DNA from: a virus
Taxonomy: Duplodnaviria; Caudoviricetes
Strand: one strand, 5' to 3'
DNA length: 31,384 nucleotides
Virus record (IMG/VR): IMGVR_UViG_3300048606_000134
Span: 1-31,384 of that record
Notes under the pieces: generated by a model
Told to the model about the DNA's origin: nothing
What the model saw: only the letters and a program-made list of their open reading frames with translations
Database searches by the model: none
Made by a program: the position numbers and the translations under genes
In this document: positions 1 through 31,384 of the stretch, in pieces
Numbering within the stretch: position 1 is the stretch's first letter
Layout: the number at the start of each line of letters is the position of its first letter

Positions 1-2044
1 CAATGACAAAGCCAATTTGCTTTGCAAGATTGGCAACATCCTTTGGCATATGTGTCAACCAATCATTTAGCCAATCCCCATCTTCACGGATCGCTTCAAA
101 ATATTTTGAAACAGCATCACCGCCACCCAAAAAGCCTGTGAGTGAATCAATAATGGATGCGCCCATGCTTGAAGCAGCTTGTGAAATTTCATTGATGCTG
201 CGCTTCAGCCCAATTTCCATTCCTTCACCTGTGTTTTCACCCATTTCAATCATCACTTTTGATGGGCTTCCAAGCTTCAAAATTCCACCAATTTTTTTGG
301 CAATCCCATTGGCAATATCGCCTGCCGCCCTTGCCACATCGCCTGCTTTTTTTGTAATCCCATCAATCAAACCTTGGATGATGTCTTTTCCTATTTGCAG
401 CAATTTTTTGTCTACCCCTTTTAGGGCATCAACAATTGCAAGAATAATTGTTTCAAGCGCTTGATCAATATCAGGCAGCGCTTTAATCAGCCCTTTCACC
501 AAAGCAATGATCAATTTCACACCTGCATCAATTATTTGTGGCAGGTGCTTCAGCAATTCTGTTGATACCAAAACAATTAATTGCAAAGCCATATCAATCA
601 ACATTGGCAGCATTTCAATAATTCCATTCACTAGAGCAATGATTAAAGATACACCTGCTGAAATAATTAAAGGCAGATTTTGTTGCAATATTGCCATCAC
701 CATTGGCATCAATTGTTGGATCTGCGCAATTAATTGTGGCAGCATTTGGATGATTCCTGTGATTAATTGCATCAAGATCTGCATGCCTGTTGAAATAATC
801 AAAGGCAGATTTTCAACAATCGCTTGCACTATGGTTGTTATCATTTGCAAGCCTGATCCAAATAAAGTAGGCAGCAAAGCAACAATTCCTGCTGCAATTG
901 AATCAAAACTGCTTACCAAATTGATATTTTCAATGCTCCATTCAGCAATTTTGGTCAATAAATTTGTCACAATTGTTGCCAAAGGTGTCAACAATATGCC
1001 CAATTCTGCAAGCGCCATTTGTAGATTGATCTGTGCTTCCTGTTGCGCCACCAATTCAGCATTCATTTTGTTGAATCCTTCAGCAGCACTTGAAAGCCCA
1101 AGATCGGACATTGTTTGCAGCATGAAATCTGTCTGTGTTCCATTGGCTGTTGCTGTTGCCAAACCTGCATTGAAGGTGTCAAGGTTCACACCTGATCTTT
1201 CAAGCAGTTCACCAAACATCCCAACAGCTTTTCCTGTTGCAAAAGTTTCTTGAATGCCATCCGCAATTCCTTCAGTGTTCAAAGTATCTGCGAATTTAAT
1301 AGCTGCACCATTTACATGATCAATTGCCTGTGAAAGCTGTTCATCATCAAATCCTGTTTGCATTAATTGCCCAAGCGTTTCAACCGCACTATCTGTTTCC
1401 TGTGATACGGCTGCAATTTTCTTGAATCCTTCTTCAACCCTTGAAACATCAAAGCCTTCATTGAAAGCATTGAACCTTAATTTTGCCAAATCTTTGTTCA
1501 AATCTTGTGTGCCTACAACCAAACCGCCAATGCCTGCTGCGCCTGCTGCTGCACCTGCTGCAAGCCCTTTGCCTGCTGCACCCATTGCACCGCCCATTTT
1601 TTTCAGGGCTGCTGTTGCCTGTCCTGCTTCTCTTTCAATCTTATCTATTTCATCCGCTACTTGTTCAGGTGCATTGGAATCATCAAGATCATCAATTCTT
1701 CTTCTTAAATTTTGAAGGAATCCTTCAGTTGATTGCACTTCCCTTTGAAAAGCACGATACTGTTCCGCCCCAATATCGCCCCTTTCAAATTGGGCTTGCA
1801 CTTGTGCTTCAGCAATGCGCAATCTTCTTAGCTTTTCTTCAGTACTTTGCACCTGATCGCCCAAAATCTGCTGCTGCTGCGCCAATAATTCTGTGTTTGT
1901 TGGATCAAATTTCAAAAGCCTTTGGACATCTTTCAATTCTCTTTGCAAAGAAAAGGTTGTGCTGTTCACATCCTTCAATGCCTTGCTTAATCCCTGTGTA
2001 TCGCCACCGATTTCAACCGTGATTCCTTTGATTCTATCCGCCAA
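1..2044 (-). CDS. Tape measure protein, 5' part (runs off the left edge)
   Basis: Not in the ORF track because there is no stop in the window. Hand translation from TTG at 2044 (SD GGCGGTG at 2051-2057) gives MADRIKGITVEIGGDTQGLSKALKDVN..., a typical Firmicutes siphophage TMP N-terminus, then amphipathic repeats (LPLIISTGMQILMQLITGII) and SPSKVM. It lies directly after the tail chaperone. Confidence 0.93.
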   Translation of the reverse strand, partial: MADRIKGITVEIGGDTQGLSKALKDVNSTTFSLQRELKDVQRLLKFDPTNTELLAQQQQILGDQVQSTEEKLRRLRIAEAQVQAQFERGDIGAEQYRAFQREVQSTEGFLQNLRRRIDDLDDSNAPEQVADEIDKIEREAGQATAALKKMGGAMGAAGKGLAAGAAAGAAGIGGLVVGTQDLNKDLAKLRFNAFNEGFDVSRVEEGFKKIAAVSQETDSAVETLGQLMQTGFDDEQLSQAIDHVNGAAIKFADTLNTEGIADGIQETFATGKAVGMFGELLERSGVNLDTFNAGLATATANGTQTDFMLQTMSDLGLSSAAEGFNKMNAELVAQQEAQINLQMALAELGILLTPLATIVTNLLTKIAEWSIENINLVSSFDSIAAGIVALLPTLFGSGLQMITTIVQAIVENLPLIISTGMQILMQLITGIIQMLPQLIAQIQQLMPMVMAILQQNLPLIISAGVSLIIALVNGIIEMLPMLIDMALQLIVLVSTELLKHLPQIIDAGVKLIIALVKGLIKALPDIDQALETIILAIVDALKGVDKKLLQIGKDIIQGLIDGITKKAGDVARAAGDIANGIAKKIGGILKLGSPSKVMIEMGENTGEGMEIGLKRSINEISQAASSMGASIIDSLTGFLGGGDAVSKYFEAIREDGDWLNDWLTHMPKDVANLAKQIGFVI

Positions 2045-2057
2045 TTATTTCACCGCC

Positions 2058-2258
2058 TTAAAAAGCATCAAAATCAGCTTGGGATGCCCTGCGTTTTCTT
2101 TCTTTTTTGGGCTTTTGTTGATCAATATATTCTTGGATGTAATCAAGCACCATGCCCACCGTTAAAAGATTCAGATCTTCAAGGCGCAATCCTGCCTGAT
2201 ATGCAAGCACTTGGAACATTTCACAATTCAGCGGTTCAGGTTCTTCATTTGTTATTAG
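2058..2258 (-). CDS. Tail assembly chaperone C-terminal extension (gpGT-like), reached by -1 frameshift
   Basis: The -1 frame after the A9C run reads LITNEEPEPLNCEMFQVLAYQAGLRLEDLNLLTVGMVLDYIQEYIDQQKPKKKRKRRASQADFDAF*, ending just before the TMP SD. Confidence 0.8.
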   Translation of the reverse strand, partial: LITNEEPEPLNCEMFQVLAYQAGLRLEDLNLLTVGMVLDYIQEYIDQQKPKKERKRRASQADFDAF

Positions 2259-2605
2259 TTTTTTTTTGTAGTTTGAAAGGATGCAAGCATCAGATCTTGC
2301 AATTCAGGAATCACAACAGCCATCGGGAATTCATCAAATTGTTCCAACCATTCCAAAGGTTCAGGAATAGTTGGATCTGCTGTTTTTGCCATGATCCAAG
2401 ATATATTATAAAAAACTTCAAAATCAAGATGTTGCATATCTTCAGCCGTGATTCCTTTTGCATCCCCCTGAAGCTTTTGCAGCGGTGCAAGCTTCAGGAT
2501 TTCTTTGAAATAATCTTTTCCAAATTGCGCTTTATATCGCAAAGGTGTTGCACCGTTCGTTTTGAATCGCACTTTTTTGCCATCTATTTCAATCGTTTTT
2601 TCCAT
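2255..2605 (-). CDS. Tail assembly chaperone (gpG-like)
   Basis: 116 aa, MEKTIEIDGKKVRFK..., between major tail and TMP; ends ACA AAA AAA AAC TAA (slippery). Confidence 0.85.
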   Translation of the reverse strand: MEKTIEIDGKKVRFKTNGATPLRYKAQFGKDYFKEILKLAPLQKLQGDAKGITAEDMQHLDFEVFYNISWIMAKTADPTIPEPLEWLEQFDEFPMAVVIPELQDLMLASFQTTKKN

Positions 2606-2622
2606 TCATACCATCCTTTTTT

Positions 2623-3195
2623 TTAAACAACAGCAGGGCTATAAACTGCCGTGTACCATGTATCATAAATATTAGCAGGTGTATCACCTGTTGTTGAACG
2701 CTTCACAATTCCGTCACTTGGTCTGGCTGCTGCAACCATTGTCAATTCCTGCGGCTGCGGTTCTGCTGTTTCTGTTTTGGTTGCTGAAGTCAAAGAAGGT
2801 CTTGTCACTGTGACATTATAAAGGATGTGTCGCACCCCTTTGATATCGCCATCAAATTCAAACATGAAAGCAATTTTCTTGTTTTTTTGCAAAGTTGATT
2901 CTGTCAAAACATTGTCAGTTGCTTCAAGCGTTTCACCTAAAACATCAATTCTAAATTCTTTTGGAATATTTGCAATCGTCAAGGTTGCTTCATATCCTGC
3001 ATTTGAAACAGTCGTGTAATAAAGAGTATCATCCGCATAGAAATCAGATGTTTCGCCCTTTGGTTCAAGGGATATTTCTGTTGCCCCTTTGATCGGAATT
3101 GGTGCAGCATATGTGTGAACACCTTCTTCATCTTCAGTAATCACCGCATAATGACAGTTTTTTAAACCATAAACAATTTTATTTTCAGGCATCAA
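2623..3195 (-). CDS. Major tail protein (phi13-like family)
   Basis: NKIVYGLKNCHYA, FYADD, FMFEFDGD motifs; expected position. Confidence 0.92.
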   Translation of the reverse strand: MMPENKIVYGLKNCHYAVITEDEEGVHTYAAPIPIKGATEISLEPKGETSDFYADDTLYYTTVSNAGYEATLTIANIPKEFRIDVLGETLEATDNVLTESTLQKNKKIAFMFEFDGDIKGVRHILYNVTVTRPSLTSATKTETAEPQPQELTMVAAARPSDGIVKRSTTGDTPANIYDTWYTAVYSPAVV

Positions 3196-3521
3196 AACAA
3201 CCTCATTTCATATATTTTTTGATGTAATTGTTCACTTTCAATCCAAGCTTCACTTGAAGAAAAAGGGATTTCATTTTCATTCAGAACCGCTTCAACAATT
3301 GCTTCAGCATCCAAATCTTTTTTGTTTGTATATAGTTCAATTTGCGCATTTTCAATAGGAATATGCACTTTGTTATCCGCCATAAAGTGTGATGAAAAAG
3401 TGATTATATAAATAAGAAAAGGCGGTGCAGGTAAAGGATCATTTTCTGTCTTTGTAAAATGCGAATAAGCAACAGGAAATCCTGTTGCTTCAAGAATAGT
3501 TTTCAATTCATAAAGGTTCAT
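3192..3521 (-). CDS. Tail terminator / tail completion protein
   Basis: 109 aa; LEATGFPVAYSHF, ADNKVH, IELYTNKKD, WIESE; position before MTP. Confidence 0.8.
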   Translation of the reverse strand: MNLYELKTILEATGFPVAYSHFTKTENDPLPAPPFLIYIITFSSHFMADNKVHIPIENAQIELYTNKKDLDAEAIVEAVLNENEIPFSSSEAWIESEQLHQKIYEMRLF

Positions 3522-3880
3522 TGTTCAATTGCCCTTTCAACATCTTTCAGAAAGTTGCGCACGGCTGTTTCTTCAGCAGGTCGGATGTGTGGCTTTTCCT
3601 GTGTTCTATCTGCACCATCCCTTGTGACATGCCCATGTTCCAAAAGATGTGTGAGTTGATAATCTGTCTTATTATGGATCACTAGCCTTTTTGATGTGCG
3701 TTTGATCCGCCATCCTTTTGCATAATCGCCACTTTTTCCTATTGGGCTGTTCATTTTGATTGCCTTCAGGCACGCTTTTGCATTTTCTTCTTTTGCAGCA
3801 TCCACTTTTTCAGAAACATTTCTTGCATAATATTGAAGCTGCTTCAAGATTTCTTGTGCTACACCTTCAATTTCTGTCAT
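3518..3880 (-). CDS. HK97 gp10-like neck/tail completion protein
   Basis: SPIGKSGDYAKGW, YQLTHLLEHGH, PHIRPA. The start is probably ATG 3880 (MTEIEGVAQEI), not 4006. Confidence 0.85.
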   Translation of the reverse strand: MTEIEGVAQEILKQLQYYARNVSEKVDAAKEENAKACLKAIKMNSPIGKSGDYAKGWRIKRTSKRLVIHNKTDYQLTHLLEHGHVTRDGADRTQEKPHIRPAEETAVRNFLKDVERAIEQ

Positions 3881-4220
3881 TTCCAACATCCACTTCACAA
3901 TAGATTTCTGTAAAGCCATCAATCCGCATAAATGATTTATATATAGTGAACCGCTTCCCATAATAATCAACATATTTTTCATCATCATAGGAATCAGAAT
4001 CAACAATCAAAAGCATATCAGGCTTGAATCCAAGCTGCCCTGCTGTTGAATGTTCAGCCCTTGTGATTGAAAGCTTACTGCAAAAAACCAAATAATATTT
4101 GTTTTCAAGGATCGGCTGCCCCAATGCATCTTTGCCTGTTGTCACTTGTGAAATCAAAGTACAAACATCATCAAGGCTGATCATTTTGGGATTGCCAATA
4201 TTAGATTTCATTGATGGCAT
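3867..4220 (-). CDS. Head closure protein (SPP1 gp16-like)
   Basis: VFCSKLSITRAEH..AGQLGFKPD, YYGKRFTIYKSF; neck position. Start is 4220 or 4184. Confidence 0.8.
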   Translation of the reverse strand: MPSMKSNIGNPKMISLDDVCTLISQVTTGKDALGQPILENKYYLVFCSKLSITRAEHSTAGQLGFKPDMLLIVDSDSYDDEKYVDYYGKRFTIYKSFMRIDGFTEIYCEVDVGNDRN

Positions 4221-4488
4221 TTTGCTTTGCAATCCTTTCTTGAATGATTCTGTTGCGCATCCTGTGTTGAATATTATTTGCAATGGGCAGATCTTCTTGG
4301 CGCTTTCGATATGTCCAAGCAGCATAATCAACAATCAGCATTTGATCATCCGCTTTGGTTTTGTCAAGTGTGATGCCCCTGCGTTCAATTTCTTGGATGC
4401 TGCTTTGAATTAATTGAATGAAAAAAGCATCCCTCAAATTGTGAGTGATGCCCATATCAATCTTGAAAAGGTTCAAAAGTGTTTCCAT
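4201..4488 (-). CDS. Head-tail connector (gp6/gp15-like)
   Basis: METLLNLFKIDMGITHNLRD..., DDQMLIVDYAAWTYRKR; start ATG 4488. Confidence 0.85.
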   Translation of the reverse strand: METLLNLFKIDMGITHNLRDAFFIQLIQSSIQEIERRGITLDKTKADDQMLIVDYAAWTYRKRQEDLPIANNIQHRMRNRIIQERIAKQNAINEI

Positions 4489-4489
4489 A

Positions 4490-4909
4490 TCAATCAGCCT
4501 TTTTTGCTTTTGCCTTTGCCTTTGCATCAATAGATTGCTGCATTGTTTGATGATCTTCTTGTGCTTTCATTTGCGCTTGGGATTGTGCGCCTGATTGCAT
4601 ATGTTGTTCAAGATGTTGCTGCCCACTTTGCACATCCACTTGTTTCACGGCTGCATTTGTTTGTTGATTCATTGTTGCTGCATTCTGCGCTGTTTGCCCT
4701 GCTTGAACAGCTTCACTTGAATTGTCATGATGTGCTTGAATGCCTGTTTGCGTATTCTGTTTATTGAAAGCTTCTTCAGCAGCTTGGGCTTCTTTCACTT
4801 TTACTTCCTGCCCATTTATCACCGTTTTTGCTTCAGCATATTTTGCAGCAGCTTGATTTTTTTGGCTCGCTTGATTAGTCGCTTGATTAGTTGCTTGATT
4901 TTCATTCAT
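4490..4909 (-). CDS. Gln/Ala/Asn-rich hydrophilic hypothetical protein
   Basis: SD AAGGAG about 9 nt before ATG 4909; fills the gap between capsid and connector; NQAT repeats at the N-terminus. Confidence 0.75.
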   Translation of the reverse strand: MNENQATNQATNQASQKNQAAAKYAEAKTVINGQEVKVKEAQAAEEAFNKQNTQTGIQAHHDNSSEAVQAGQTAQNAATMNQQTNAAVKQVDVQSGQQHLEQHMQSGAQSQAQMKAQEDHQTMQQSIDAKAKAKAKKAD

Positions 4910-4954
4910 TTTTTCATTCTCCTTTTGATTCATTATTTTGTTTCAAAATTTATA

Positions 4955-6220
4955 TTAAACAGCAGGTGTGATTGTTATAAGCACAAAAGCTTCAGGTTGT
5001 GTGGGCTTGCCATCGAATCTTCCTTTGCCCCTGAAAGCCATTTGATCTTCAACAAAGCGCACATGCTCGCTGTTGTCAATTGCAATGTTTTCACGTTCAA
5101 CCAAAGTATATTTGTCAAATTCACCATATAAAACTTGATCCGCTGCCATGCTATTGTTGAAAGTAACAGGGATTCCAAGGATGTCAGGTGTTGTCAAGTT
5201 CGGCAATCTGCCAATAGTTTCACCTGCTGCATTCACATTGATGGACATTTCAAGGAAATAAGCATAATAAGTTGAACGCTTCATAACCGCACGAATTTCC
5301 CCAACATTATCTTCACCTGTGTCAATCAATCCTATTGGCTTCACATATTCAGCAATCGTTGAATCATCAGGCACGCTTACTTGATTCCCAACAGGAATAG
5401 AAGGGATGATGCCTGTGGGCTGTTTGCCTGCTGCACCTGTTCCATTCAGGATGGCAATATCAAGCGCCAATCCAATTGCCCTTGCAATCTTCTTTGAAAC
5501 ATATTCATCAAGATTAATCACGCTATCTTGTAATAAATAGTTATCAACAAAAGTGACTTTTCCAACCTTGAAGCCATCAAAATCTAAATATGCAAGTGTT
5601 CCAACATCACCAATTGGAAGTGATGCATTTTGTTCAACCCAAGATGCAGGTGTTGTGTCTGTATCAATCAGGATGCGTGCCGTTCCTTTTACTTGGATTC
5701 TGTCAACAATAGGATACAATGTTGAATAATCGCCCAAGATATCCATGATCCTTGAAACAATTACTTCAGGGATTGCAAGTTCGCCACCTGTCACGGCACG
5801 CAAGTTTTTAAATTGTTGATAGAATTCTTGGACATCTGAGCGCTTGAAATATTCGCCTGTTTTTAATAATTCCCTCACTTGCAATCTGTTCATGCTTTCA
5901 CTTTCTCCTTTGCTGCGTGATTGTTGCTTGCTAGTTGCTGAAGCTTTTGCAGATCTTTCTTTTACATCATCAAGTTCTGTTTCAAGTTCTGTGATTTCTG
6001 CTTCAATTGTTTTCTTTTCAACTTCAATTCCATCTTGTTCTTTTTCAATTTCTGTGATTTCAGCTTCAACCGTTTTGATGTCTTCTTCAGTTTTTGCTTC
6101 TTCAAGTGCTGCTGCTGCATCTTCAGATCTTTTTAAAATGGCAGCCGCTTTTGTTTCAACTTCTTTCAATTTGCTTCTTTTGATTTCAAGTTGCTTTGAA
6201 ATTTTTAATTGTTTCAACAT
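4955..6220 (-). CDS. Major capsid protein, HK97 fold with N-terminal coiled-coil delta domain
   Basis: Charged coiled-coil N-terminus; GGELAIPE, LLQDSVINL, AILNGTG..QPTGII, ILGIPV, GRFDGKP..PEAFV. Confidence 0.96.
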   Translation of the reverse strand: MLKQLKISKQLEIKRSKLKEVETKAAAILKRSEDAAAALEEAKTEEDIKTVEAEITEIEKEQDGIEVEKKTIEAEITELETELDDVKERSAKASATSKQQSRSKGESESMNRLQVRELLKTGEYFKRSDVQEFYQQFKNLRAVTGGELAIPEVIVSRIMDILGDYSTLYPIVDRIQVKGTARILIDTDTTPASWVEQNASLPIGDVGTLAYLDFDGFKVGKVTFVDNYLLQDSVINLDEYVSKKIARAIGLALDIAILNGTGAAGKQPTGIIPSIPVGNQVSVPDDSTIAEYVKPIGLIDTGEDNVGEIRAVMKRSTYYAYFLEMSINVNAAGETIGRLPNLTTPDILGIPVTFNNSMAADQVLYGEFDKYTLVERENIAIDNSEHVRFVEDQMAFRGKGRFDGKPTQPEAFVLITITPAV

Positions 6221-6224
6221 AGTT

Positions 6225-6806
6225 TTATTTCAATCCCTTCAATCTTTTTGATAGCGCATCTTTTTTTTCTTGCAGCTTCCTTGTTTCAATCTGTTCAATC
6301 TGCTTGCTGCGTGCATGCACTGTTGTGTTTTCATAAGCAGGGAAGGTGACAACAGATATTTCATGTAAATCAATATCTTTCATCCGCCATCTATAACCGC
6401 CATTTGAAAGTTCTTCAAGATCTTCATCCAAGATATTGAAGCCAAAGCTGCACTGATCTATGTCACCACGCTTAACCAATTCATAAAGATCTTCAGCATA
6501 TTGTGTCTTTGGCAGCTTGATTGTGCCAAACAATCCTTTTTCATCTGCCCTTAGCTGCAAAGATCCATTCTTGCTGCGCCCCAAAACATATTGTGTATTG
6601 TGATTCCATAACGCTCTAACATCATTCTTTATAGTGTTGTCAAAAGCGCCCCGTGATATGATTTCATAAGTATTTTTAAACAGTTCTGTTTCTTGCTCAT
6701 ATAATGCAAAGTATCCTTCAATCACATTTTCTGCATCATCTGCTTCAGCCCTTGTGATTGTAAACTTTGTTTTGAAATCACGAATTGCTTTTTCACGCTT
6801 TTCCAC
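6225..6806 (-). CDS. HK97-family prohead protease
   Basis: IEGYFALY, ALWNH, LGRS, CSFGF, LHEISVVTFPAY. Probable GTG start at 6806 after SD GAAAGGTGGTG. Confidence 0.94.
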   Translation of the reverse strand: MEKREKAIRDFKTKFTITRAEADDAENVIEGYFALYEQETELFKNTYEIISRGAFDNTIKNDVRALWNHNTQYVLGRSKNGSLQLRADEKGLFGTIKLPKTQYAEDLYELVKRGDIDQCSFGFNILDEDLEELSNGGYRWRMKDIDLHEISVVTFPAYENTTVHARSKQIEQIETRKLQEKKDALSKRLKGLK

Positions 6807-7998
6807 CTGATTCATCACCACCTTTCAAGCCGCTGCCATTGTCAAGTTTTTTCTGCTTCCCAACATCAGCAACAGGAATATAATTTTCAAGAACAACATA
6901 TTCATCCAAGCCATCAACAGGGCTGTAATCAAAAGCATTGCGCCCTTCATTGCGGTTTATTAATCCACCGCCCACCATTTCTTTCACATGACTTGTCAAT
7001 TCGCCCAAGTCATATTGCATCAAAGATTTTGCATTAAATCTGAAATACCATGTGGGCTTGTATACTAATTTTTTAGTCAATTCCTGTTCAATGGATTTTG
7101 CAATTGGCATGATCACGGATGATATAAAATTGTTGTATTCATCTTTGTTGAAAGATCCAACCCCAACCATGAAAGCAGGGATGCCAAAAGCAGATGCCAC
7201 CGCTTTTTTGTCAAGTTCAATTGATTCTTGAATTGCAAGATCTTGCAGGCTTAATGGTCTAACTTCTTTCACTTCAATTTCTGAAGCTGGCACAATCCAA
7301 GGTTCACCATTGTCTGTATCGCCCACATAACTATTCAAGATCTTTTCACGTTCTTCTTTCACTTGCATGCCTTCAGCATCAGATTCAACTTTGATAATTA
7401 AAGAAGGTCGCCATTTTGATTGCAAAAATCCTGTCTTTGTTGTATTCGCTTGAACGATATTTGCAATCGTATCTTTCACAATTGGGATGAATCCCTGCCC
7501 TTTGAATGGCAGATTATCATCAGGAATCAAAGCAAAGTGCAGCACTTCATCAGGTTCAAAAAGCTGCAATTTATATTGGATCTGATAGCTGTTAAAATCG
7601 CCCCTGAAGCTTACCCCATTTATATCCCAAATTGAAAGATTATTAAGCAGCCCATTTTCTTCAGATGGCATCACAACCGCATTGCCGTGAATCAACATAT
7701 CAGCCACAATTTTATATATAAAATTCTTTCTAGTCATATATAAATTGGGATATACATCAATCTGTTTTGATAGTTCATTTTTCAATCTGATATCCCCATC
7801 AAGGCTGTTTTCCATTAGCATGATTGTCATGCTGCTTACCAAATCTGCAATCTTGTGAATACATTTTTTTACTTCTTCATTTTTTGTAATTGGCATATAG
7901 CCATTGGGCAAAAGAATGTTCTTTGCTTCATCGCCATTCAGCCAAAAAGCAACAGGTGTTTCTTGCCGCTTTTGCATTTTTTTGCGCATTCCAAACAA
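6793..7998 (-). CDS. Portal protein, HK97 family
   Basis: CIHKIADLVSSM, HGNA, VASAFGIPAFMVG, IEQELTKKL, NRNEGR; SD GAAAGGCGGTG. Confidence 0.95.
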   Translation of the reverse strand: MFGMRKKMQKRQETPVAFWLNGDEAKNILLPNGYMPITKNEEVKKCIHKIADLVSSMTIMLMENSLDGDIRLKNELSKQIDVYPNLYMTRKNFIYKIVADMLIHGNAVVMPSEENGLLNNLSIWDINGVSFRGDFNSYQIQYKLQLFEPDEVLHFALIPDDNLPFKGQGFIPIVKDTIANIVQANTTKTGFLQSKWRPSLIIKVESDAEGMQVKEEREKILNSYVGDTDNGEPWIVPASEIEVKEVRPLSLQDLAIQESIELDKKAVASAFGIPAFMVGVGSFNKDEYNNFISSVIMPIAKSIEQELTKKLVYKPTWYFRFNAKSLMQYDLGELTSHVKEMVGGGLINRNEGRNAFDYSPVDGLDEYVVLENYIPVADVGKQKKLDNGSGLKGGDESGGKA

Positions 7999-8019
7999 AT
8001 ATTTTCACCGCCTTTCAAA

Positions 8020-9759
8020 TCAAAACCATGTGTTGAATTTTTTGTTTTTATCTCTTGCAATAATTGCTTGTTTAACCGCAACAACAGTTGCATCAAAAAG
8101 ATCTATCCTGAAGTTTTCAGCAACCTTTGAAAAGCGCACACGTTCTTCAGCATCTTCATTGGCTTTCACATTGGCAATGCAATATTCAAAAGCTTTGCTT
8201 GAAAGGAAGGTGAACTGTTTGGCTTTTATTTTGCGTTCAATTTCCCTGAAGGCTTCAGATTTTTTCCAATATTGCTGCCCTGCTTCTTCCATTTTAAATT
8301 TCTGCTTTTCCATGCTGCGCACAAAATCACGGCTGTTGTATTTATCAAAAGCAACCGCCTTGATTTTGAAGCCCTGATCACGTTTATTTTTAAACCATTT
8401 CACGACTTCTTCATAATCAACTAATTCACTGTTTGTCATTGAAAGCCATCCTTTATCCATCCACCAAAAGAAAGGGATGTTGTCTTCATCCGCTTTGGCT
8501 TTCGCCTGTGTGATTGGGATGAATCCGTGCGTGATGGTAATATCTATTTCTTCATATCGCCCATAAATTGCTGCGCCTGTTAAATCAAACATCTTTGAAA
8601 GATCCGCACCGCCAAACCATTCAATCTTCAGCTTTGCAAGATCTTCAATTGTTACTTCTTTTTCAGGCGCAATTTTTAATTTCGCCTTTAATGCTTTCAG
8701 GGCTTGTTCATCACTGTATTGGATTTCGCCTATATCAAAGTATGCGCTCATAGTATTTGTGTAAATGTTCAAAGATTTATTTAAAAATTCGCTGCGTGCG
8801 CTCGGATCATTTTGCGCCTGCATTGCTTCTGCCATTATGTCTTGTGGTCTGATTGTCACACCATAATTGGGATTGGCTTTTTCATGTTCAATTGGATTGG
8901 TGTAATCATCAGGATCATCTGCTTTGGTTATAAAAATAAAATATTGTTCATCTTCAATTTCCTTGCTTAATATCTTTTGGCAATAGGTCAAGCGCTGAAA
9001 GCAGAAAGATGTCATGCTGCTGCCTGCTGTCGTGATTCCAATCAGCAGCTTATTCATATAGGCTTTCATTGCTTGCTTGTAAACAAAATAATCATTAGCA
9101 CTTTTATAGGCATGAATTTCATCAAGAATAAAAATATTCCCATTCAAGCCATCCGCCTTTTTTGAATCGGCTGCAAGTGCTTGAATTTTGATTGCGCCTG
9201 TCCTATTCCCTTCAGCATCTTGAAAGGATCTTTGAATGCTGTGTTCACTGTTGTTGTCAAGCACCCTGAAATTTTTTCTTTCACCCATTGCATCAAGATT
9301 TTCAAGAACATTGTTGAAAGCTTCAAGCGCCCTGTCCAATTTGGTTGCCACAATATAAACAACCGCATACTGATTTCTTTCCAACAGTGAAAGCGCCCAA
9401 GCAACCGCTGAAGCAAAAAAGGTTTTGCTGTTTTTTCTTGGCAGAAAGATGAAAGCTTCTTTGTATTTTCTTTCGTTTGTTCCTGAAATATAAATGGCAG
9501 CTACATTGTAAACAATGAACCGCTGCCAATCTTCAAGAATATATGGTTTTCCTTTTGCCGTTCCTTTGATATGCACAAAAGTTTTTTCAATAATGCCAAT
9601 ACAAAATTCAGCATCCTTGTGCTTGATTTCGTATCTTGGATCTTGCAGATCTTCAAGGAATCTTTGCGCTGCTTGGATCAATTCTTTGCAGGCAATCCTT
9701 TTACCCTCCACAATATCATTGGCATATTTCAAAACTATTTTAAAATTTTTATGTTCCAA
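8020..9759 (-). CDS. terL: Terminase large subunit
   Basis: LEDWQRF, Walker A PRKNSKT, Walker B FILDEIH, ITTAG, KANPNYG, GADLS, RIDLFDA. Confidence 0.96.
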   Translation of the reverse strand: MEHKNFKIVLKYANDIVEGKRIACKELIQAAQRFLEDLQDPRYEIKHKDAEFCIGIIEKTFVHIKGTAKGKPYILEDWQRFIVYNVAAIYISGTNERKYKEAFIFLPRKNSKTFFASAVAWALSLLERNQYAVVYIVATKLDRALEAFNNVLENLDAMGERKNFRVLDNNSEHSIQRSFQDAEGNRTGAIKIQALAADSKKADGLNGNIFILDEIHAYKSANDYFVYKQAMKAYMNKLLIGITTAGSSMTSFCFQRLTYCQKILSKEIEDEQYFIFITKADDPDDYTNPIEHEKANPNYGVTIRPQDIMAEAMQAQNDPSARSEFLNKSLNIYTNTMSAYFDIGEIQYSDEQALKALKAKLKIAPEKEVTIEDLAKLKIEWFGGADLSKMFDLTGAAIYGRYEEIDITITHGFIPITQAKAKADEDNIPFFWWMDKGWLSMTNSELVDYEEVVKWFKNKRDQGFKIKAVAFDKYNSRDFVRSMEKQKFKMEEAGQQYWKKSEAFREIERKIKAKQFTFLSSKAFEYCIANVKANEDAEERVRFSKVAENFRIDLFDATVVAVKQAIIARDKNKKFNTWF

Positions 9760-10099
9760 AATTCATCAGCGCCATTTCCAGCTTGCTTTGCGGCTTTTTC
9801 GGTTTTGCTAGTTCATCACTAATTTTTCGCAATCCTGAAGGTGTCAACCCAAGCGCATTTGAATATGAAAGTATATCTTTTCTTAGGTTTTCCAAGGTTG
9901 CCACAATCGGTGCTTTCTTTGCATTGTCGCTGTACCCTGTTTTTTCAACCACCGTAAACTTGCTTTTTTTAAATTCTTTTTCAAGCGCCTGATATTGTTC
10001 AATCAGCCCTGCATAAATTAGAATTGTATTTTCAAATTCAGGTTTATAAATACCCAATGCAATCATATTTTCTTTTGTTTGTTCTGTAACCCTTCCCAT
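9749..10099 (-). CDS. terS: Terminase small subunit (P27 family)
   Basis: ALGLTPSGLRKI motif; SD GGAGGTG before ATG 10099; overlaps terL. Confidence 0.9.
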   Translation of the reverse strand: MGRVTEQTKENMIALGIYKPEFENTILIYAGLIEQYQALEKEFKKSKFTVVEKTGYSDNAKKAPIVATLENLRKDILSYSNALGLTPSGLRKISDELAKPKKPQSKLEMALMNFGT

Positions 10100-10812
10100 G
10101 TTTTCACCTCCAATGCAATTTTTTCGCCTTTCACAAGATTGCACTTTTTACACAATATTTGTAAATTGTTTACTTCACTGTTTCCGCCTTTTGATAATGG
10201 AATAATGTGATCAATATGCGCTTTATCATCCGTGTTCCAATCGCCTGTGCTTTCATCATGCACTTTGATTTCGCATATTTGACAAGTCCAATTATCACGC
10301 TTTAAAATTTCTGTTCGTTCAATAGGACTGAATTCCCTATTATATTTAAGTGATCGAATTTTTAAATTATGATAGTACCTGATATTTTTTCCTTTGTCTG
10401 TTTGTCTATATATTTTTTCTTTCAGGCTTAGATTTTCTTTATTTTCTTTTCGATATTGTTTATCTCTTTTTAAAATATGTTCTTTATTTTTATTTCGATA
10501 TTGTTCATGGTAAGCCAATATATTTTCTTTGTTCTGTTCGTAATAAAGTTTGTGATCATTGACTATTTTTTCTTTATTTTTTTTTCGCCACATTTTAAGA
10601 TAGGCAGCAGTTTTTTCTTTGTTTTTTTCTCTATATTCTTTTCCGTAAATTGCTCTTTTTTCTTTTGTTTCCTGTTTTGAATTATGTTGTTTGGTGTCTT
10701 CTAGTTTGCATTTTTTGCATTTAGAATATAATCCATCTTTTCCTTTTTTACATTTATAAAAATACTCTAATGTTGCAGGATATTCAGTTTTGCATTGGCT
10801 GCATTGCTTCAT
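10063..10812 (-). CDS. HNH endonuclease with N-terminal Cys4 finger (probable free-standing homing endonuclease)
   Basis: CSQC..CKKC, K/E-rich helical repeats, RDNWTCQIC..HIDHIIPLSKGG..NNLQILCKKCN; more AT-rich than its neighbours; overlaps the terS start. Confidence 0.88.
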   Translation of the reverse strand: MKQCSQCKTEYPATLEYFYKCKKGKDGLYSKCKKCKLEDTKQHNSKQETKEKRAIYGKEYREKNKEKTAAYLKMWRKKNKEKIVNDHKLYYEQNKENILAYHEQYRNKNKEHILKRDKQYRKENKENLSLKEKIYRQTDKGKNIRYYHNLKIRSLKYNREFSPIERTEILKRDNWTCQICEIKVHDESTGDWNTDDKAHIDHIIPLSKGGNSEVNNLQILCKKCNLVKGEKIALEVKTWEGLQNKQKKI

Positions 10813-11179: not shown

Positions 11180-11428
11180 TCACCTTCTTATCAGATGCCC
11201 ACCCTTTTCAGGATGGATCTTGTTATGACAGGAAGCGCACACGCTCACAAGATTGCTATTGCTCATAGCCAATTCAGGATGATCTTCAACTTCCTTGATA
11301 TGATGCACAATCCGTGCTTCCCTATTCCTGCCATACTTCTTGCATTCTTGGCAAAGGAAGCCATCACGGTGCAATATATATTGGCGCTTTGATCGCCATC
11401 TTTTCTGATTATAAAAGTTCTTATTCAT
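11180..11428 (-). CDS. Small HNH endonuclease (HK97 gp74-like packaging cofactor)
   Basis: FYNQKRWRSKR..RDGFLCQEC..VHHIKE..NLVSVCASCHNKIH; TGATG coupling to the upstream gene. Confidence 0.92.
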   Translation of the reverse strand: MNKNFYNQKRWRSKRQYILHRDGFLCQECKKYGRNREARIVHHIKEVEDHPELAMSNSNLVSVCASCHNKIHPEKGGHLIRR

Positions 11429-13528: not shown

Positions 13529-13540
13529 TTTTTCACCGCC

Positions 13541-16627: not shown

Positions 16628-16628
16628 T

Positions 16629-22032: not shown

Positions 22033-22036
22033 AATT

Positions 22037-23758
22037 TTAATTCCACCTTTCAAATCGTTTTATAACAATCTGATAATAGTGATTAATATCAACTATTTTT
22101 TCAAAGCGTTCAAGATCTTCACAATCCTGATTCCAAAGAAACATATTCAAAGGCGCATCCGCATATCTCACAAGCCCATCATCATGCCTTTTTTTAAATA
22201 GGCAGCAGCCTTCTTTTTTAGCCGCAAAAACCCTGTTCACTTTTGTTTCAAGTAGTTCGCCTTTTTCATTGCACGTTCCCTGATATGTATTTCCTGCCTT
22301 CAAGATATATTGATATAAATGCGGCTGATCCAAATTTTCAAGCAGCGTTTCCGCAATATCTTTTCCATGAATTAATTTATTCACTAGGGCAATATCAAGA
22401 ATCCTTGCATTATTATTTTTGAAAAGGGCTTCTTCTTCATATCTGTTTACATCACCACCCTTGCAGATCAAAAAATCATCTTTTTTTGCCACATAATTAT
22501 TCACATCTTTTTGCAGGAAAAGATCAAAATCTTTTTCTTCCAATTGAAGCAAAAAATCATCCTGCCATGTTTTATAGGCTTCAATATAGCCATCATTTTC
22601 AGGGATAAAAGCAACCCCATCTGTATTGATATTTATTATTTTGGCAAAAGGCGCAATCCGCTTGCAAAGATCAAATAGGGCAATCTGTCCATAAATACAA
22701 ACAGAATATGCTGCTTTTGGATTGTAAAGCATGGAATATTCATTGTTTAAATTCCCATAAACACTGTTCAAAATCAGCTTCAAAGCTTCAGAAAGCACAA
22801 AATCTTTGGCTTTTTTCGCTTTGATCCTGTCCATTAAAATTTTTCTATATTTCTCACTAGCTGCGCCCAAGCAATTCAGGATCAAAATAATATTTGGATA
22901 CATACTTGTAACATCCAGCAGCTTCACTTTTTCCACACGTTTCAAGCTTGTATGCGCACCGTGCAAGCCACCAAAAGCGAATTGAATATCATTGTTGAAA
23001 GCTTTGATTGTCACGCTGCCTTTTGGCTTTTTTTCCTGCGCCTGTTCCAACCAAAATTCCTTCACTTCATTTGGTACGCAATCCAAAAGCCATTCATCAA
23101 TTCTAATATTCGACCATTTGGGCAGCGGTTTTTGCATCAGCAGATTGGCTGAAATTGTGGTTGTATTCCATTTCATTGCAGCTTCTTTTCCCAACATCCC
23201 CACAAGTGATATTTTGGGCTGAAAGTAGGATTTTACCCTTTTCAGATAAATATCAATTGTTGTGTCCACATCATAAATACAATAATTCAAGCACTGATCA
23301 AATTCATTTGGCTGCAAAGGTCTATCAATTGTGAAGGGAACGCTTGATTCAAGAATCATGCGCCCCATATTTCCTTCTATTTTCTTCAGTGATGGGAATG
23401 AAACATCAATCTGTTGAAAGCAATCCAAGCTTTTGAATTTTTTGCTTTTGACAAACCGCACATCTTCACCTTCAATGATCCGATCATTCAACCATTTGAT
23501 CTGTTGCGGTGTTTTTAAATCAAGCATATATTGCATGATTTTGTCATCATAGTGATAGTTGTTATATCCAACCAATGTTTTGCCTTGAATGAAATCTGCC
23601 AATAAAACAAAATTGTTGTGAAATACTCTTTTCAGCTTTTTATTGATATCTTTGAAAACAACAAAAGCATCATGGCTGTAAACTTCAATATCATAAAAAA
23701 GCAGATCCGCATCCTGATATATTTTAATCAGCCCTTTATCAGTTGATGTTTGTACCAT
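22037..23758 (-). CDS. Family B DNA polymerase with 3'-5' exonuclease
   Basis: ExoI FYDIEV, ExoII GYNNYHYD, ExoIII YCIYDV; motif A LLDVTSMYP, motif B KLILNSVYG, motif C NINTDG. Confidence 0.9.
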   Translation of the reverse strand: MVQTSTDKGLIKIYQDADLLFYDIEVYSHDAFVVFKDINKKLKRVFHNNFVLLADFIQGKTLVGYNNYHYDDKIMQYMLDLKTPQQIKWLNDRIIEGEDVRFVKSKKFKSLDCFQQIDVSFPSLKKIEGNMGRMILESSVPFTIDRPLQPNEFDQCLNYCIYDVDTTIDIYLKRVKSYFQPKISLVGMLGKEAAMKWNTTTISANLLMQKPLPKWSNIRIDEWLLDCVPNEVKEFWLEQAQEKKPKGSVTIKAFNNDIQFAFGGLHGAHTSLKRVEKVKLLDVTSMYPNIILILNCLGAASEKYRKILMDRIKAKKAKDFVLSEALKLILNSVYGNLNNEYSMLYNPKAAYSVCIYGQIALFDLCKRIAPFAKIININTDGVAFIPENDGYIEAYKTWQDDFLLQLEEKDFDLFLQKDVNNYVAKKDDFLICKGGDVNRYEEEALFKNNNARILDIALVNKLIHGKDIAETLLENLDQPHLYQYILKAGNTYQGTCNEKGELLETKVNRVFAAKKEGCCLFKKRHDDGLVRYADAPLNMFLWNQDCEDLERFEKIVDINHYYQIVIKRFERWN

Positions 23759-27337: not shown

Positions 27338-28030
27338 TCAATTATCATCCTGTTCTTTCTTTGGCGCTTTTTGCATGATCTTCATTTCAATGTAAAAATC
27401 ACTTTCTTCACCTTCAAGTATCAAATCAAATTTTGATAGTTGTTTTTGAATCTTTTCAGCATCATATGTGCCAATAAAAGAAAGATGCAGCCCTTCAATC
27501 ATAATTTCCTGAACAACAGGTGCAGGCGGTGCTGCAACAGGTGCAGGCGGTGTTTCTTCAAGCTGCATCAGTGAAGACTGTATTGCAGATTGAATGGCAG
27601 GTTCTTTGGATGCTGTTTTTGCTGTCGCTTTTCTTGGTTTTTTTTCGCTGCTGGCATCCACTCTTTTTGCTTTTGGCAGCCCAAGATCCGCAACAATTCT
27701 GTAATATCTCGCATTCCATATGCCCATTCCATCTGTGATTGTTTTGTTGCTGTATGTGTTGCGCCAATATGCAAGCATGTTTCTTTGCTCATATTCTTCA
27801 AGCTTTTCAAATTCTTCTATTGGGATTATTTCTTCATATAGGTTCGATATACTCACTTTTGAATTCCCCTTATATTTTCTTTTTTCTTTGCGGCTCATGA
27901 TATCTGAAGGGAATCGCATTTTTCCAACATAGCCATTTTTGCCTGTTTTGTGATGCACTCCTGAAGCTGTTTTTTTCTTATCTCTTACTTCATCATTGAA
28001 CAGCCGTTCTGCCTCGCTTTGCCACATCAT
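27338..28030 (-). CDS. Hypothetical early protein (basic N-terminus, possible HTH, Pro/Ala linker)
   Basis: 230 aa; duplicated PPAPV (17-bp repeat near 27515-27552). Confidence 0.75.
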   Translation of the reverse strand: MMWQSEAERLFNDEVRDKKKTASGVHHKTGKNGYVGKMRFPSDIMSRKEKRKYKGNSKVSISNLYEEIIPIEEFEKLEEYEQRNMLAYWRNTYSNKTITDGMGIWNARYYRIVADLGLPKAKRVDASSEKKPRKATAKTASKEPAIQSAIQSSLMQLEETPPAPVAAPPAPVVQEIMIEGLHLSFIGTYDAEKIQKQLSKFDLILEGEESDFYIEMKIMQKAPKKEQDDN

Positions 28031-28540: not shown

Positions 28541-28795
28541 TCAGGCTTCCTGCTTCAGCATATCTTCTTTCAGTGCGGCAATATATTCCGCATACTTCCC
28601 AAAATAAATATTTTCCGTTGAAATACCATACACGGATTCAAGCTTGATGAAGAAGGTTCTTGGAACATTGGTTGAATCTGCTTCATAATTTGACAAAGTT
28701 TCATAGTGAATTCCAAATTCGCTTGCCGCTTCTTTTAATGTTTTCCCAATGTTCACACGGGCTGCTTTCAATGTTATTTGTGGCAATCTGTTCAC
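28541..28795 (-). CDS. XRE-family HTH regulator (Cro-like)
   Basis: ITLKAARVNIGKTLKEAASEFGIHYETLSNYE; first gene of the early operon. The start may be TTG 28786. Confidence 0.88.
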   Translation of the reverse strand: MNRLPQITLKAARVNIGKTLKEAASEFGIHYETLSNYEADSTNVPRTFFIKLESVYGISTENIYFGKYAEYIAALKEDMLKQEA

Positions 28796-28801
28796 CCCCT
28801 T

Positions 28802-28848
28802 TTCTGCCTTACTCTTTCTATTGTAAAGGCAGAACCTTGCAACATCAA
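28802..28848 (-). promoter_or_regulatory. SigA-type promoter with overlapping inverted repeat
   Basis: TTGATG-N17-TACAAT (28848-28820); TTCTGCCTT-N15-AAGGCAGAA (28802-28834) brackets the -10. Confidence 0.6.
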
Positions 28849-29031
28849 ATCAATTGAACCGCCTGGCACGGAAATATTTATTTGTATTCATATCATAAGC
28901 AGCATCAGCTTGATTTATACCTGAAAAATAAATAAATTTTTTTTGATTAAAAGAATATCTATTTGCCCATGATGTATAAGTTATACAAAAAGCGCCAAAT
29001 TCCTGCCCATTGCGTGCAATTTTTTGAAAAT

Positions 29032-29064
29032 AAAAAAAAAGGGCAGCAATTGCTGCGCCCTTTT
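29032..29064 (-). terminator. Intrinsic terminator after the recombinase
   Basis: GC-rich hairpin AAGGGC(GC)AGCAATTGCTGCCC followed by T9 on the minus strand. Confidence 0.75.
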
Positions 29065-30706
29065 ATGCAAGTTCTTCTTTGATTTCTTTTTCCATGTTCT
29101 TAAAAATTTCATCTGTATCTTTTTTCCAAGCTGCTTTCAAAAAGATTTCATTTCCTTTTTTAGTGTAAATAATTGCTTCAAGAAATTCAGATAATATATC
29201 ATTTTTTTCTTCTTCTTTCATGAATGCATTGGTTCTGCCTGATAAAAATTTTTTTATTTTATCCATTATCTGTGTTGCTGCGCTTGATTCAGATATAAAT
29301 TCTTCAGCATCTTCTTTTTGCAAAGATGTGTGCAGCACTTTGATCATATTTTTAAGATCTATTATTTCATCTCTTTTTTCATCTTCTTCTTCTTCATCTA
29401 AATAAGTACCTTTTTCAAGGTTTTTATTAATGTTTTTTATTGTCCTTTTCCATTCTTCTATTTGCTTTTCTTTTGCAATTTTCATTGATTCTTTTTTGAT
29501 CTGCTGCTTTTTTTCATCAATTTCCGTGTTATTTATTAAATCAATATATTTTTCAAGCTGTTTCACTCGCATTTCCAAAGCCCCAAAAACGATATTTTCA
29601 AAAGGTTCAAGGTTTGATCCGCCATTTTTGCACACTGTATAAGAAGAAAAATCATCATTATAAGTTCTAGTTTGGCAGCTTGAAATTCTTTTTTTGCCGC
29701 CTTTTGATTTTTGAAAAGAATGAACCGCATCACATTCAAAACATCTGATCAATCCACTGAAAGTATGTTTTGCATGTTTTAAGGCAGGCGGTTTTGAGCT
29801 TTTTTTGGTCAATAGTTTCTGAACTATTTCCCATTCTTCCTGTGTCACAATTCCTGTGTGCGTTTCTTCTCTAAAAAGTTGGATCTTTTCATCTGTTTTT
29901 ATCGTTTTCCTTTTTTTAGTTCCTTTTATTTTTGGCTGTGTAGTTTTCCCATAAAGCGTATGCCCTGCATAAGCAACATTGTTCAAGATGCGTGATATTC
30001 CAGCAGGTGACCAAAGCATTTTTTCAGCCGTTTCTATTGTTTCAATCTTTTCATTTTTAAATTTATAAGCAATATCTTTTGTACTCATTCCTTGCATGTA
30101 TAGTTCAAATATTTGCTTTACAACAGGCGCATCTTTTGATTTCACTAGGCGCTTTTTTTCCCTGTCATAAAGATACCCAACAGGTGTTTTTTTGCCTAAC
30201 CAATTTCCACTTTTGGCGGATTGAATTGTTCCTCTTTTTAATTTCTTTTTTAACTGTGTCAATTGATAAATCCCTATTTCTGTCAATACCCCTGCCACTA
30301 ATACATCATTTTCATTATTAAAATCTGAAATACTTCCTGATTCTGTTTGTCCAAATTTACAACCTACTTCTTTCAAAAGTGCTTTAAAAATATGGAAATC
30401 TTCAGTTCTACAAATACGGAATTGGTCAACCACAATAATCATATCGAATTGATAATTTTTTATTTCCACTAACATTTCTTGAAATTTTTCACGTTCCCAA
30501 TCTTCACTACTTTGAGAACCTTCATCAACATAAACAACATAATCAGTGATTCCTTTTCTTGCAGCCCATTCCTTGCATTCATTGATTTGCCCTTCTAAAC
30601 TCATTTGATCTTCCCTTGATTTTCTTGCATAAATTGCTGCTTTTTCTACCCCATAAACATTTTTAAATTGTTGTTGTGGTTCATGCGCTGTGTTCATCTT
30701 TTTCAT
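29063..30706 (-). CDS. Large serine recombinase (phage integrase)
   Basis: IYARKS catalytic motif, DEG..S, R, TPVGYLYD, ILNNVAYAG, HTGIVTQEEW, FSGLIRCFEC zinc ribbon, coiled coil. Start is 30706 or 30697. Confidence 0.94.
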   Translation of the reverse strand: MKKMNTAHEPQQQFKNVYGVEKAAIYARKSREDQMSLEGQINECKEWAARKGITDYVVYVDEGSQSSEDWEREKFQEMLVEIKNYQFDMIIVVDQFRICRTEDFHIFKALLKEVGCKFGQTESGSISDFNNENDVLVAGVLTEIGIYQLTQLKKKLKRGTIQSAKSGNWLGKKTPVGYLYDREKKRLVKSKDAPVVKQIFELYMQGMSTKDIAYKFKNEKIETIETAEKMLWSPAGISRILNNVAYAGHTLYGKTTQPKIKGTKKRKTIKTDEKIQLFREETHTGIVTQEEWEIVQKLLTKKSSKPPALKHAKHTFSGLIRCFECDAVHSFQKSKGGKKRISSCQTRTYNDDFSSYTVCKNGGSNLEPFENIVFGALEMRVKQLEKYIDLINNTEIDEKKQQIKKESMKIAKEKQIEEWKRTIKNINKNLEKGTYLDEEEEDEKRDEIIDLKNMIKVLHTSLQKEDAEEFISESSAATQIMDKIKKFLSGRTNAFMKEEEKNDILSEFLEAIIYTKKGNEIFLKAAWKKDTDEIFKNMEKEIKEELA

Positions 30707-30761
30707 CTGCCCCTTATCTTTCAATGTATTGATATTACTAAGTTTCTAGCATATCACACTA

Positions 30762-30990: not shown

Positions 30991-31065
30991 TGCGGCTTCA
31001 TCCCTTTCTATATTTCAAGTGTGGGCTGAAAGAAAATAAAATAAACATTTTATGTGCAAAATAAA

Positions 31066-31110
31066 AGGAATCAGGTGTGCAGGCATTGCCCCTGATTCCC
31101 TCCTTTTTTT
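31066..31110 (+). terminator. Hairpin with T tract (plus strand)
   Basis: GGAATCAGG / CCTGATTCC stem followed by CTCC and T7. Confidence 0.45.
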
Positions 31111-31118
31111 GAAATCAT

Positions 31119-31148
31119 AAAAAGATCCGCAACCATCTGCGGATCTTT
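31119..31148 (-). terminator. Intrinsic terminator
   Basis: AAAGATCCGCA / TGCGGATCTTT stem; T5 on the minus strand. Confidence 0.65.
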
Positions 31149-31156
31149 GCCATTAA

Positions 31157-31252
31157 TCACTTTTTTTGCTGCTTTTTTTTAAAAAGATGTTGATGCGTTT
31201 TCAAATATTCTTGCAATATTTGATATGGAATCAACCATGATTTTTTATTCAC
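31157..31252 (-). CDS. Possible 31-aa basic peptide
   Basis: GTG start overlapping the upstream stop; MNKKSWLIPYQILQEYLKTHQHLFKKKQQKK*. Confidence 0.35.
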   Translation of the reverse strand: MNKKSWLIPYQILQEYLKTHQHLFKKKQQKK

Positions 31253-31384
31253 TTTCTTCTTCCTTGTATGTCTTATCAACTTTATTATAAATCAAAGAAA
31301 AAACTTCACTTGAAAAGCCCTTCCCAAAATAATCAGGAATATCAATTTCAACAGATCCCCTGCCCATCATCAAATAGGATTCTG
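31245..31384 (-). CDS. 3' end of a hypothetical protein (truncated by the right edge)
   Basis: Open frame ...ESYLMMGRGSVEIDIPDYFGKGFSSEVFSLIYNKVDKTYKEEESE*. Confidence 0.55.
   Translation of the reverse strand, partial: ESYLMMGRGSVEIDIPDYFGKGFSSEVFSLIYNKVDKTYKEEESE

Follow-up and report, generated by a model that had tools for sequence, protein, structure and literature searches.

The stretch of DNA analysed here, referred to below as the window, is a whole virus record (IMG/VR record IMGVR_UViG_3300048606_000134; Duplodnaviria, Caudoviricetes) with a length of 31,384 bases and a GC content of 37%. All of its annotatable genes are located on the minus strand (Table 1). The complete relative G003 has a genome of 40.8 kb, so that about 9 kb are missing from the record of the window. 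The subject of this study is the depletion of the trinucleotide GAG and its complement CTC in this phage genome and the sequence geometry around the copies that survive.

Table 1. Genes and sequence features of the window, with GAG/CTC counts where these were determined per gene
Feature	Position	Strand	Remarks
Head and tail module	2..10144	-	tape measure (cut by the window end), tail tube, connectors, protease, TerS
Leader of the tape-measure gene	2045..2066	-	Shine-Dalgarno site without GAG (GGCGGTG)
HK97-type major capsid gene	4955-6220	-	
GAG/CTC-free stretch	5069..5837		inside the major capsid gene
Portal gene	6793-7998	-	
Leader of the portal gene	7999..8020	-	Shine-Dalgarno site without GAG
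TerL gene	8020-9759	-	
HNH endonuclease gene	10063..10812	-	GAG/CTC 5 vs 9.9 expected: partial recovery
Genes for Fn3-like protein, putative hydrolase and BppU/fibre	11428..16639	-	fibre GAG/CTC 5 vs 58 expected
Intracellular subtilase and LysM-NlpC/P60 gene	17553..19129	-	GAG/CTC 0 vs 15 expected (subtilase)
Primase-helicase and DNA polymerase genes	20224..23758	-	PHROG 864 and 1252
Unannotated open reading frame	27338..28030	-	GAG/CTC 7 vs 14.6 expected: partial recovery
Cro-like helix-turn-helix gene and large serine recombinase gene	28541..30724	-	same orientation as all other genes

Expected word counts were calculated with a maximal-order Markov model. GAG and CTC together occur 95 times in the window (16 GAG and 79 CTC on the plus strand) with 537 occurrences expected, which corresponds to an observed/expected (O/E) ratio of 0.18 and a loss of about 80%, and CCAG and CTGG are reduced to 13 of 162. 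The original prediction, made from the sequence by eye, had described exactly this avoidance on both strands, with about a dozen CCAG/CTGG, no CCGG and one GGCC; the last two indeed occur 0 and 1 times (29 and 60 expected). Further words that are absent or rare are CGCG (0 vs 41 expected), CCCG/CGGG (4 vs 48), GACG/CGTC (4 vs 52), CGAAG (0 vs 40), CGTAG (0 vs 9), CAACG (2 vs 32) and GGAAAG (2 vs 20), and the contiguous words CTGCAG and CAGCTG are avoided as well. AAG/CTT and GAA/TTC are enriched. Of the words previously called abundant, CCTG/CAGG is in fact enriched (332 vs 249), whereas GATC is merely normal (160 vs 170); GCGC was counted 119 times. The stretch 5069-5837 lacks both trinucleotides as had been stated, though it is not special, the gap at 6696-8052 being longer. 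The idea that local recovery of the words marks acquired genes is weakly backed by the HNH endonuclease gene and the open reading frame (ORF) at 27338-28030.

Shuffling of synonymous codons within genes (200 shuffles, 43 ORFs) was used as a codon-preserving null. Off-frame counts fall far below it for GAG (51 vs 177), CTC (10 vs 102), CCAG (4 vs 41) and CTGG (6 vs 76), and for GAG and CTC all 200 shuffles exceeded the observation in both off-frame positions. Codon preference as the cause is ruled out by this off-frame depletion, in line with the earlier view that more than a preference among glutamate codons is involved, even though these are 98% GAA (740 GAA, 17 GAG) and only 2 of 793 leucine codons are CTC. 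Stretches of chromosome from six Bacilli genomes, none shown to be a host, gave O/E ratios of 0.81-0.98 for GAG and 0.77-1.06 for CCAG; the deficits are thus not equally strong there, and a host-wide word bias was not seen. In sum, the depletion goes beyond codon and composition nulls on both strands and is stronger than in Bacilli chromosomes. It also extends to Shine-Dalgarno (SD) sites, which contain GAG in 6 of 30 window genes vs 154 of 233 genes in nine outgroup phage loci (Fisher p 1.7e-6; start calls were automatic and some are wrong). The GAG-free SD variants reported previously for the tape-measure, portal, hydrolase, fibre, primase and Cro genes were all found again, and at the orthologous SD sites of the portal gene the middle position is A, C, T or G in different relatives.

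These relatives were collected as a clade set of 33 non-redundant loci with a minimum length of 2.5 kb and a capsid identity of at least 71% or a TerL identity near 85%; anything shorter was dropped. The GAG O/E ratio ranges from 0.15 to 0.91 in the 33 loci, with values of 0.57 or less in 26 of them, and from 0.76 to 1.10 in 65 more distant loci. The deficits of GAG/CTC and CCAG are a clade trait of uncultured Bacillales-type phages. The three most depleted trimers of the clade are GAG (0.41), CGA (0.59) and GAC (0.76).

A pointer to the cause comes from the bases downstream of surviving GAGs. No T is present after a gap of five to eight bases (N5-N8), equivalent to an A-to-T spacing of 6-9 bases, at 64 of the 95 window GAGs, compared with 33.2% at frame-matched distant offsets (p 1e-11); in the mirror window upstream, 27 of the 95 are T-free. 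The T ratios at N5, N6, N7 and N8 are 0.51, 0.33, 0.60 and 0.49 in the window and 0.73, 0.66, 0.64 and 0.69 in 31 pooled clade loci, where N3-N4 reach 1.33 and 1.10 and N9-N13 lie at 0.93-1.07. There is no T deficit at N1-N4 or N9-N13, nor a consistent one upstream; the base directly after GAG is T-poor in the clade pool (0.68), which reflects contiguous words. This T-hole is faint in 14 outgroup phage loci (0.98, 0.88, 0.89, 0.97) and not visible in 11 chromosome stretches (1.00, 1.00, 0.96, 0.97). Taken singly, 26 of the 32 clade loci have a hole ratio below 0.9, compared with 2 of 20 outgroup loci and none of the 15 chromosome stretches. For CGA, GGA, GAC and ACC, T dips within the same A-to-T range, and the deepest holes belong to GAG, CGA and GAC, the most depleted clade trimers. 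Between the window and its closest relative L119, T-bearing GAGs make up 9 of 14 variable sites and 6 of 17 shared ones, which is the expected direction with too few sites.

Avoidance of spaced words is also seen directly. Many of the depleted word pairs have spacers of 5-8 bases. In the window, GCA(N7)TC (17/63, observed/expected), CCA(N7)TC (9/44), CAG(N7)CT (8/36), CAG(N6)TA (16/49) and CAG(N3)CTG (0/22) are depleted, and at the strand level 42 bipartite words of the 3+3 type are depleted with p<1e-4. G003 has 93 such words and two outgroups have 4 and 7, while the yield from four clade loci of shorter length is only 4-15. Counts of palindromic GAG(Nk)CTC sites are small.

How much of the deficit the T-hole covers was estimated with a null in which the proteins were kept and codons were drawn from ten related low-GC phage loci. 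Coding GAGs with a T in N5-N8 number 22 vs 378 expected in the window, and T-free ones 47 vs 168, with a flat control window N11-N14 (0.11-0.14). In G003, T-free GAGs occur near expectation (165/202) and T-bearing ones do not (59/455), and group J has 236/239 T-free GAGs, so that in some lineages the bipartite avoidance covers nearly all of the deficit. The T-free GAGs of the three most purged lineages, namely those of the window (5/49), L046 (2/75) and L048 (2/24), hardly ever have a G at N6, perhaps indicating a bipartite site with a modified cytosine in its second half.

The same signature was found outside the clade, in four of five cultured phages tested at the site level. The unrelated phages PA73 and KL1 have lost nearly all GAG (28 of 826 and 29 of 809 expected, O/E about 0.03), and the survivors are T-free in N5-N8 in 25 of 28 and 25 of 29 cases vs about 42% expected. 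SPP1 and phi29 are not GAG-poor and show the hole nevertheless (526 of 1076 T-free vs 36.1%, and 168 of 417 vs 27.6%). GBSV1 has no significant T-hole (p 0.09), and in 15 chromosome stretches 34.7% of the sites are T-free vs 33.3% expected.

The set of avoided words switches between close relatives: GATC ranges from 0 to 4.5 and CCGG from 0 to 1.35, CAC is low in one lineage and AGC in others. This switching would be more readily reconciled with exposure to different host repertoires than with a constant bias of the polymerase of the phage. The strands also differ, with coding-strand O/E ratios for CTC vs GAG of 0.09 vs 0.81 in L125, 0.10 vs 0.42 in G003 and 0.07 vs 0.15 in the window; this bias is strong in L125, L047 and G003 and weak in the window.

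Individual lineages have further peculiarities. L125 (14.9 kb) is 4.5-fold enriched in GATC, most of its relatives being normal or without GATC, and its depletion of CTG is confined to the coding strand (0.13 vs 1.27 for CAG), as is also the case in L120 and L151. In L046, L047 and L121 (G004 and G005 lineages) AAGCA is kept or mildly reduced and nearly all other NAGCN words are lost, with GCA(N6)GC and TGC(N7)GC near zero. The lineage of L135, L150, L081 and L001 is depleted of CAC/GTG in all 16 contexts and has lost GCAG/CTGC; CAC is low in PA73 and KL1, too.

The avoidance of CCAG/CTGG follows another pattern. Over 415 residual clade sites CCAG has no T-hole, for which reason a type I reading of this word was rejected and GAG and CCAG are assigned different causes. 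Each of its four 3′ extensions comes and goes on its own: CCAGT is retained in L047, CCAGA is the sole extension lost in L048, and CCAGA is retained in L125. This suggests a union of 5-base motifs; whether the target is a single 4-base motif or several motifs of 5 bases, it is distinct from GAG. In the part of Table S4 of Blow 2016 (PMC4752239) used here, cCag is a modified 4-base motif of Exiguobacterium sp. GIC31 with no enzyme assigned, and M.Gel16401IV of Geopsychrobacter modifies cCag to 5-methylcytosine. The Exiguobacterium phage vB_EauS-123, like the window, avoids CCAG/CTGG (15 vs 64). Restriction at the Exiguobacterium motif is not shown, and the separate switching of the four CCAGN words is a difference on the side of the window clade. 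Phage EauS-123 and the Exiguobacterium motif offer a ready system for identifying the CCAG defence. As another contiguous motif, the type III site CGWAG matches the absence of both CGAAG and CGTAG.

The HsdS subunit of type I enzymes joins two exchangeable recognition domains, each of which reads one half-site with a target adenine, the two adenines being on opposite strands. We consider it likely that the GAG/CTC deficit is the summed result of selection against many GAG-containing host sites, foremost bipartite, type I-like ones. From one host strain to another, a GAG-reading domain would be combined with various partners and spacers, and each GAG with a T at 6-9 may thus be a full site, or be one step away from one, for the enzyme of some strain. 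Dropping the shared half-site would cut the number of sites for all such specificities together, and the graded benefit would thin the trimer without eliminating it. Removal would be cheap, because GAA, CTT and SD variants can substitute, and junctions of SD site and start codon, which share the geometry of GAG followed by T, would lose their GAG in the same way. Contiguous GAG-containing motifs of type IIS, IIG, III or BREX-like (bacteriophage exclusion) systems could make up the T-independent part. Selection by host defences had been proposed before and is supported, though in a narrower form, as most of the GAG signal is bipartite in its geometry and does not resemble that of a short contiguous GAG motif or BREX. 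The accompanying proposal of a sequence-specific DNA modification, if phage-encoded, found no backing, since no methyltransferase or base-modification gene was found among the 39 ORFs of the window, which is without about 9 kb, and 25 selected G003 proteins.

Published motifs agree with this geometry, the depleted words being matched only to motifs of bacteria other than the host of the window phage. The type I table of PMC12707154 gives D = 6-9 in the portion consulted, and EcoAI, EcoEI and StyLT7III in its Table 1 combine a GAG half-site with an adenine spacing of 6-9, the same as the hole in the window. Among the searched rows of Table S4 of Blow 2016, 27 have GAG beside the spacer, 21 of them as bare GAG, and the spacing is 6-9 in 24 of 25 with both bases marked (counted by eye). 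None of these three enzymes or 27 rows comes from the host of the window phage, and GAG is one of the commonest half-sites of Table S4 but not uniquely so, the half-site string counts in that table being GCA 31, GAG 28, CAG 24, CCA 23, AAG 19 and CAC 13. Type I and bipartite type IIB/IIG enzymes share the same site geometry; 1 of the 27 GAG rows is type IIG. In the related order of Anaerobacillus, 150 of 301 genomes encode an HsdS domain.

Several results weigh against bipartite selection as the leading cause. T-free GAG is still 3.5-fold depleted in the window and reaches 30/41 only after five post hoc exclusions of contexts typical of contiguous motifs; two further lineages with a strong purge reach no more than 29/63 and 10/19 under the same exclusions. 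The T-hole is missing in 6 of 32 clade loci, it is not significant on the template strand of the window (19 vs 24 T, 16 sites), and, given the kinship among the loci, the clade counts lack independence when pooled. GCA equals GAG in frequency as a half-site of Table S4 and yet has an O/E ratio of 0.99, though bipartite words with GCA are avoided. Depletion did not correlate significantly with hole depth over 48 trimer-adenine rows (Spearman 0.19, p 0.19), and a general dependence of trimer depletion on hole depth was dropped. Also not predicted by classical type I enzymes is the strand bias kept by T-free sites (in the G003 group, 0.85 on the coding vs 0.23 on the template strand); a T in N5-N8 is found at about 84% of possible template-strand GAG sites vs 65% on the coding strand (null counts), and the T-rich template strand accounts for part of the bias, not all of it. 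Finally, according to Rusinov 2018 (PMC6286503), as far as the sections used here go, sites of type I or IIG systems are not avoided by phages, the explanation offered there being that type I specificities change too fast.

It is improbable, in our view, that a reader of the bare 3-mer, such as BREX type 4 (NCTC) or Dnd (GAGC/GCTC phosphorothioate), drives most of the purge through a density-dependent penalty with bipartite sites as a second layer. The window lineage shows depletion in each of the 16 NGAGN contexts, T-free GAG remains at 0.28 in the window, and GACG/CGTC is nearly gone; phosphorothioate at ACTC, CCTC and TCTC (BREX 4), GAAG, GACG and CAG is reported in the passages of PMC12914056 consulted. 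Of the phosphorothioate motifs, NCTC, GAGC/GCTC, GACG and CAG are depleted in the window or its relatives, but they have no bipartite geometry and were mapped in gut Bacteroidota and Lachnospiraceae, NCTC itself in Bacteroides, and neither phage restriction there nor phage avoidance is shown in those passages. Dependence on a distant T is not predicted by such a reader and amounts to about fivefold for T at N5-N8, and the near-expected T-free GAGs of G003 and group J argue in the same direction. Several lineages spare GAGC (GCTC), which counts in favour of this reading, but GAGC is spared against the null in reference phages too (1.45). Still less probable as the main force are systems acting on inverted pairs of sites (type III, type ISP, MANTIS), which would purge GAG sites from one strand first. 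The stronger purge of coding-strand CTC in L125, G003 and the window, the joint absence of CGAAG and CGTAG and the single-strand depletion described in the MANTIS preprint (bioRxiv 10.64898/2026.09.23.753747) speak for them, and the strand-asymmetric loss of an asymmetric word resembles that of the window. However, their sites consist of contiguous bases (5-7 for these systems in general, 5-6 for type III and MANTIS), unlike GAG in the window, and would give no T-hole, the strand bias stems partly from the T-rich template strand, and the window is depleted on both strands.

Explanations without any defence fare worse. Context-dependent mutation, for example deamination at CTC, or codon and transfer RNA preference would account for the enrichment of AAG/CTT and GAA/TTC, as expected from G-to-A changes, and for the 98% GAA among glutamate codons; it is nevertheless very unlikely and largely refuted by the off-frame depletion on both strands, the dependence on a distant T and the switching on and off of word sets between close relatives. 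Moreover, C, T or G stands in place of the middle A at orthologous SD sites, and the 14 sites that differ from a 95%-identical relative are changed at all three positions. We give hardly any credence to avoidance of spurious internal ribosome-binding sites (GGAG or GAGG followed by ATG, GTG or TTG) as the origin of the hole. TG is indeed the most depleted dinucleotide in it (0.35-0.56), and the clade hole is deeper on the coding strand, but the hole persists at non-SD GAGs (window 17 vs 56) and for T not preceding G (27 vs 59), is not seen after GGTG, does not differ between the strands of SPP1 and is missing from chromosomes, which refutes this avoidance as the main cause.

Selection against shared bipartite half-sites can be placed beside related observations. 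Like the double-stranded DNA phages of Rusinov 2018, the window has lost short palindromes (CCGG, GGCC, CGCG, CTGCAG), and more strongly than the temperate relatives and chromosomes examined; it differs from what the consulted sections of that study describe in its strong bipartite geometry, detected without reference to a specificity, and in the collapse of a whole trinucleotide. The Staphylococcus podovirus phiAGO1.3 (PMC6346686) has few complete type I (Sau1) sites, proposed there to widen its strain range. That work counted known full sites in one phage group, and a GAG-6-GAT site occurs 5 times; a purge of a shared half-site or an effect on codons or SD sites, as in the window, is not part of the passages on phiAGO1.3 drawn upon. 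Our literature search, with most subscription journals outside its coverage, returned nothing on GAG depletion or half-site purging.

With respect to the host, the nearest named matches are distant: the best cultured TerL match is that of Geobacillus phage GBSV1 (51.5% identity), and the named recombinase relatives from Bacillus and Risungbinella share 39-42%. A Bacillales host is therefore only suggested by these sequence similarities. Among 401 Bacilli genomes, 5 contained capsid matches, with 47-61% identity, and none of the 401 yielded a prophage whose capsid is more than 61% identical. A scan of viral contigs with the DNA polymerase gave no match. The best 40 recombinase and best 120 subtilase relatives are all on contigs of at most 56 kb. 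These best 120 relatives of the subtilase (window 17553-18491; identity 65-100%) are without exception from assemblies of metagenomes or of runs, and no named genome is among their sources. The uncultured phage clade with an intracellular serine protease and a LysM-NlpC/P60 gene is a large one. The closest match from genome collections, L031 (G002:C96), is a 19 kb contig in a Saccharimonadales metagenome-assembled genome and probably mis-binned; it keeps CCAG and has lost GAG and GAC. No CI-like repressor was seen next to the serine recombinase (window 28541-30724; L045:126-3294), unlike the divergent integrase-repressor cassette of GBSV1 and EauS-123, and the clade may not be conventionally temperate. 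Other genes also deserve mention. At 4490-4933, after the capsid gene, the window carries a Q/N/A-rich ORF of 147 amino acids without family match, and G003 has a similar ORF there. The head-tail connector ORF of L119 (L119:5583-7325) runs on over 580 amino acids and includes HNHD repeats and an additional C-terminal domain that the window lacks. In the small-gene cluster of G003, a region not in the window record, lies a gene for a protein with an ArdC N-terminal domain (L044:17415-17723).

The feature of the window is restriction-site avoidance in a new form, counter to the published generalisation on type I sites. Whether it exemplifies a general and so far unrecognised anti-restriction strategy, in which type I domains are shuffled but a GAG-reading domain is reused and phages of unrelated hosts delete the half-site, we regard as an even chance. 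If true, it would explain the GAG/CTC-poor genomes of phages as different as the Bacillales-type clade, PA73 and KL1, do away with the notion that type I sites escape avoidance, and provide a specificity-free T-hole test by which host type I repertoires could be read from phage genomes. Because the T-hole can be scored without prior knowledge of motifs, collections of phages or plasmids of any kind could be tested for type I-like exposure. The purge of a shared half-site would thus be a route for selection despite fast-changing specificities, strong enough to reshape glutamate and leucine codons and ribosome-binding sites.

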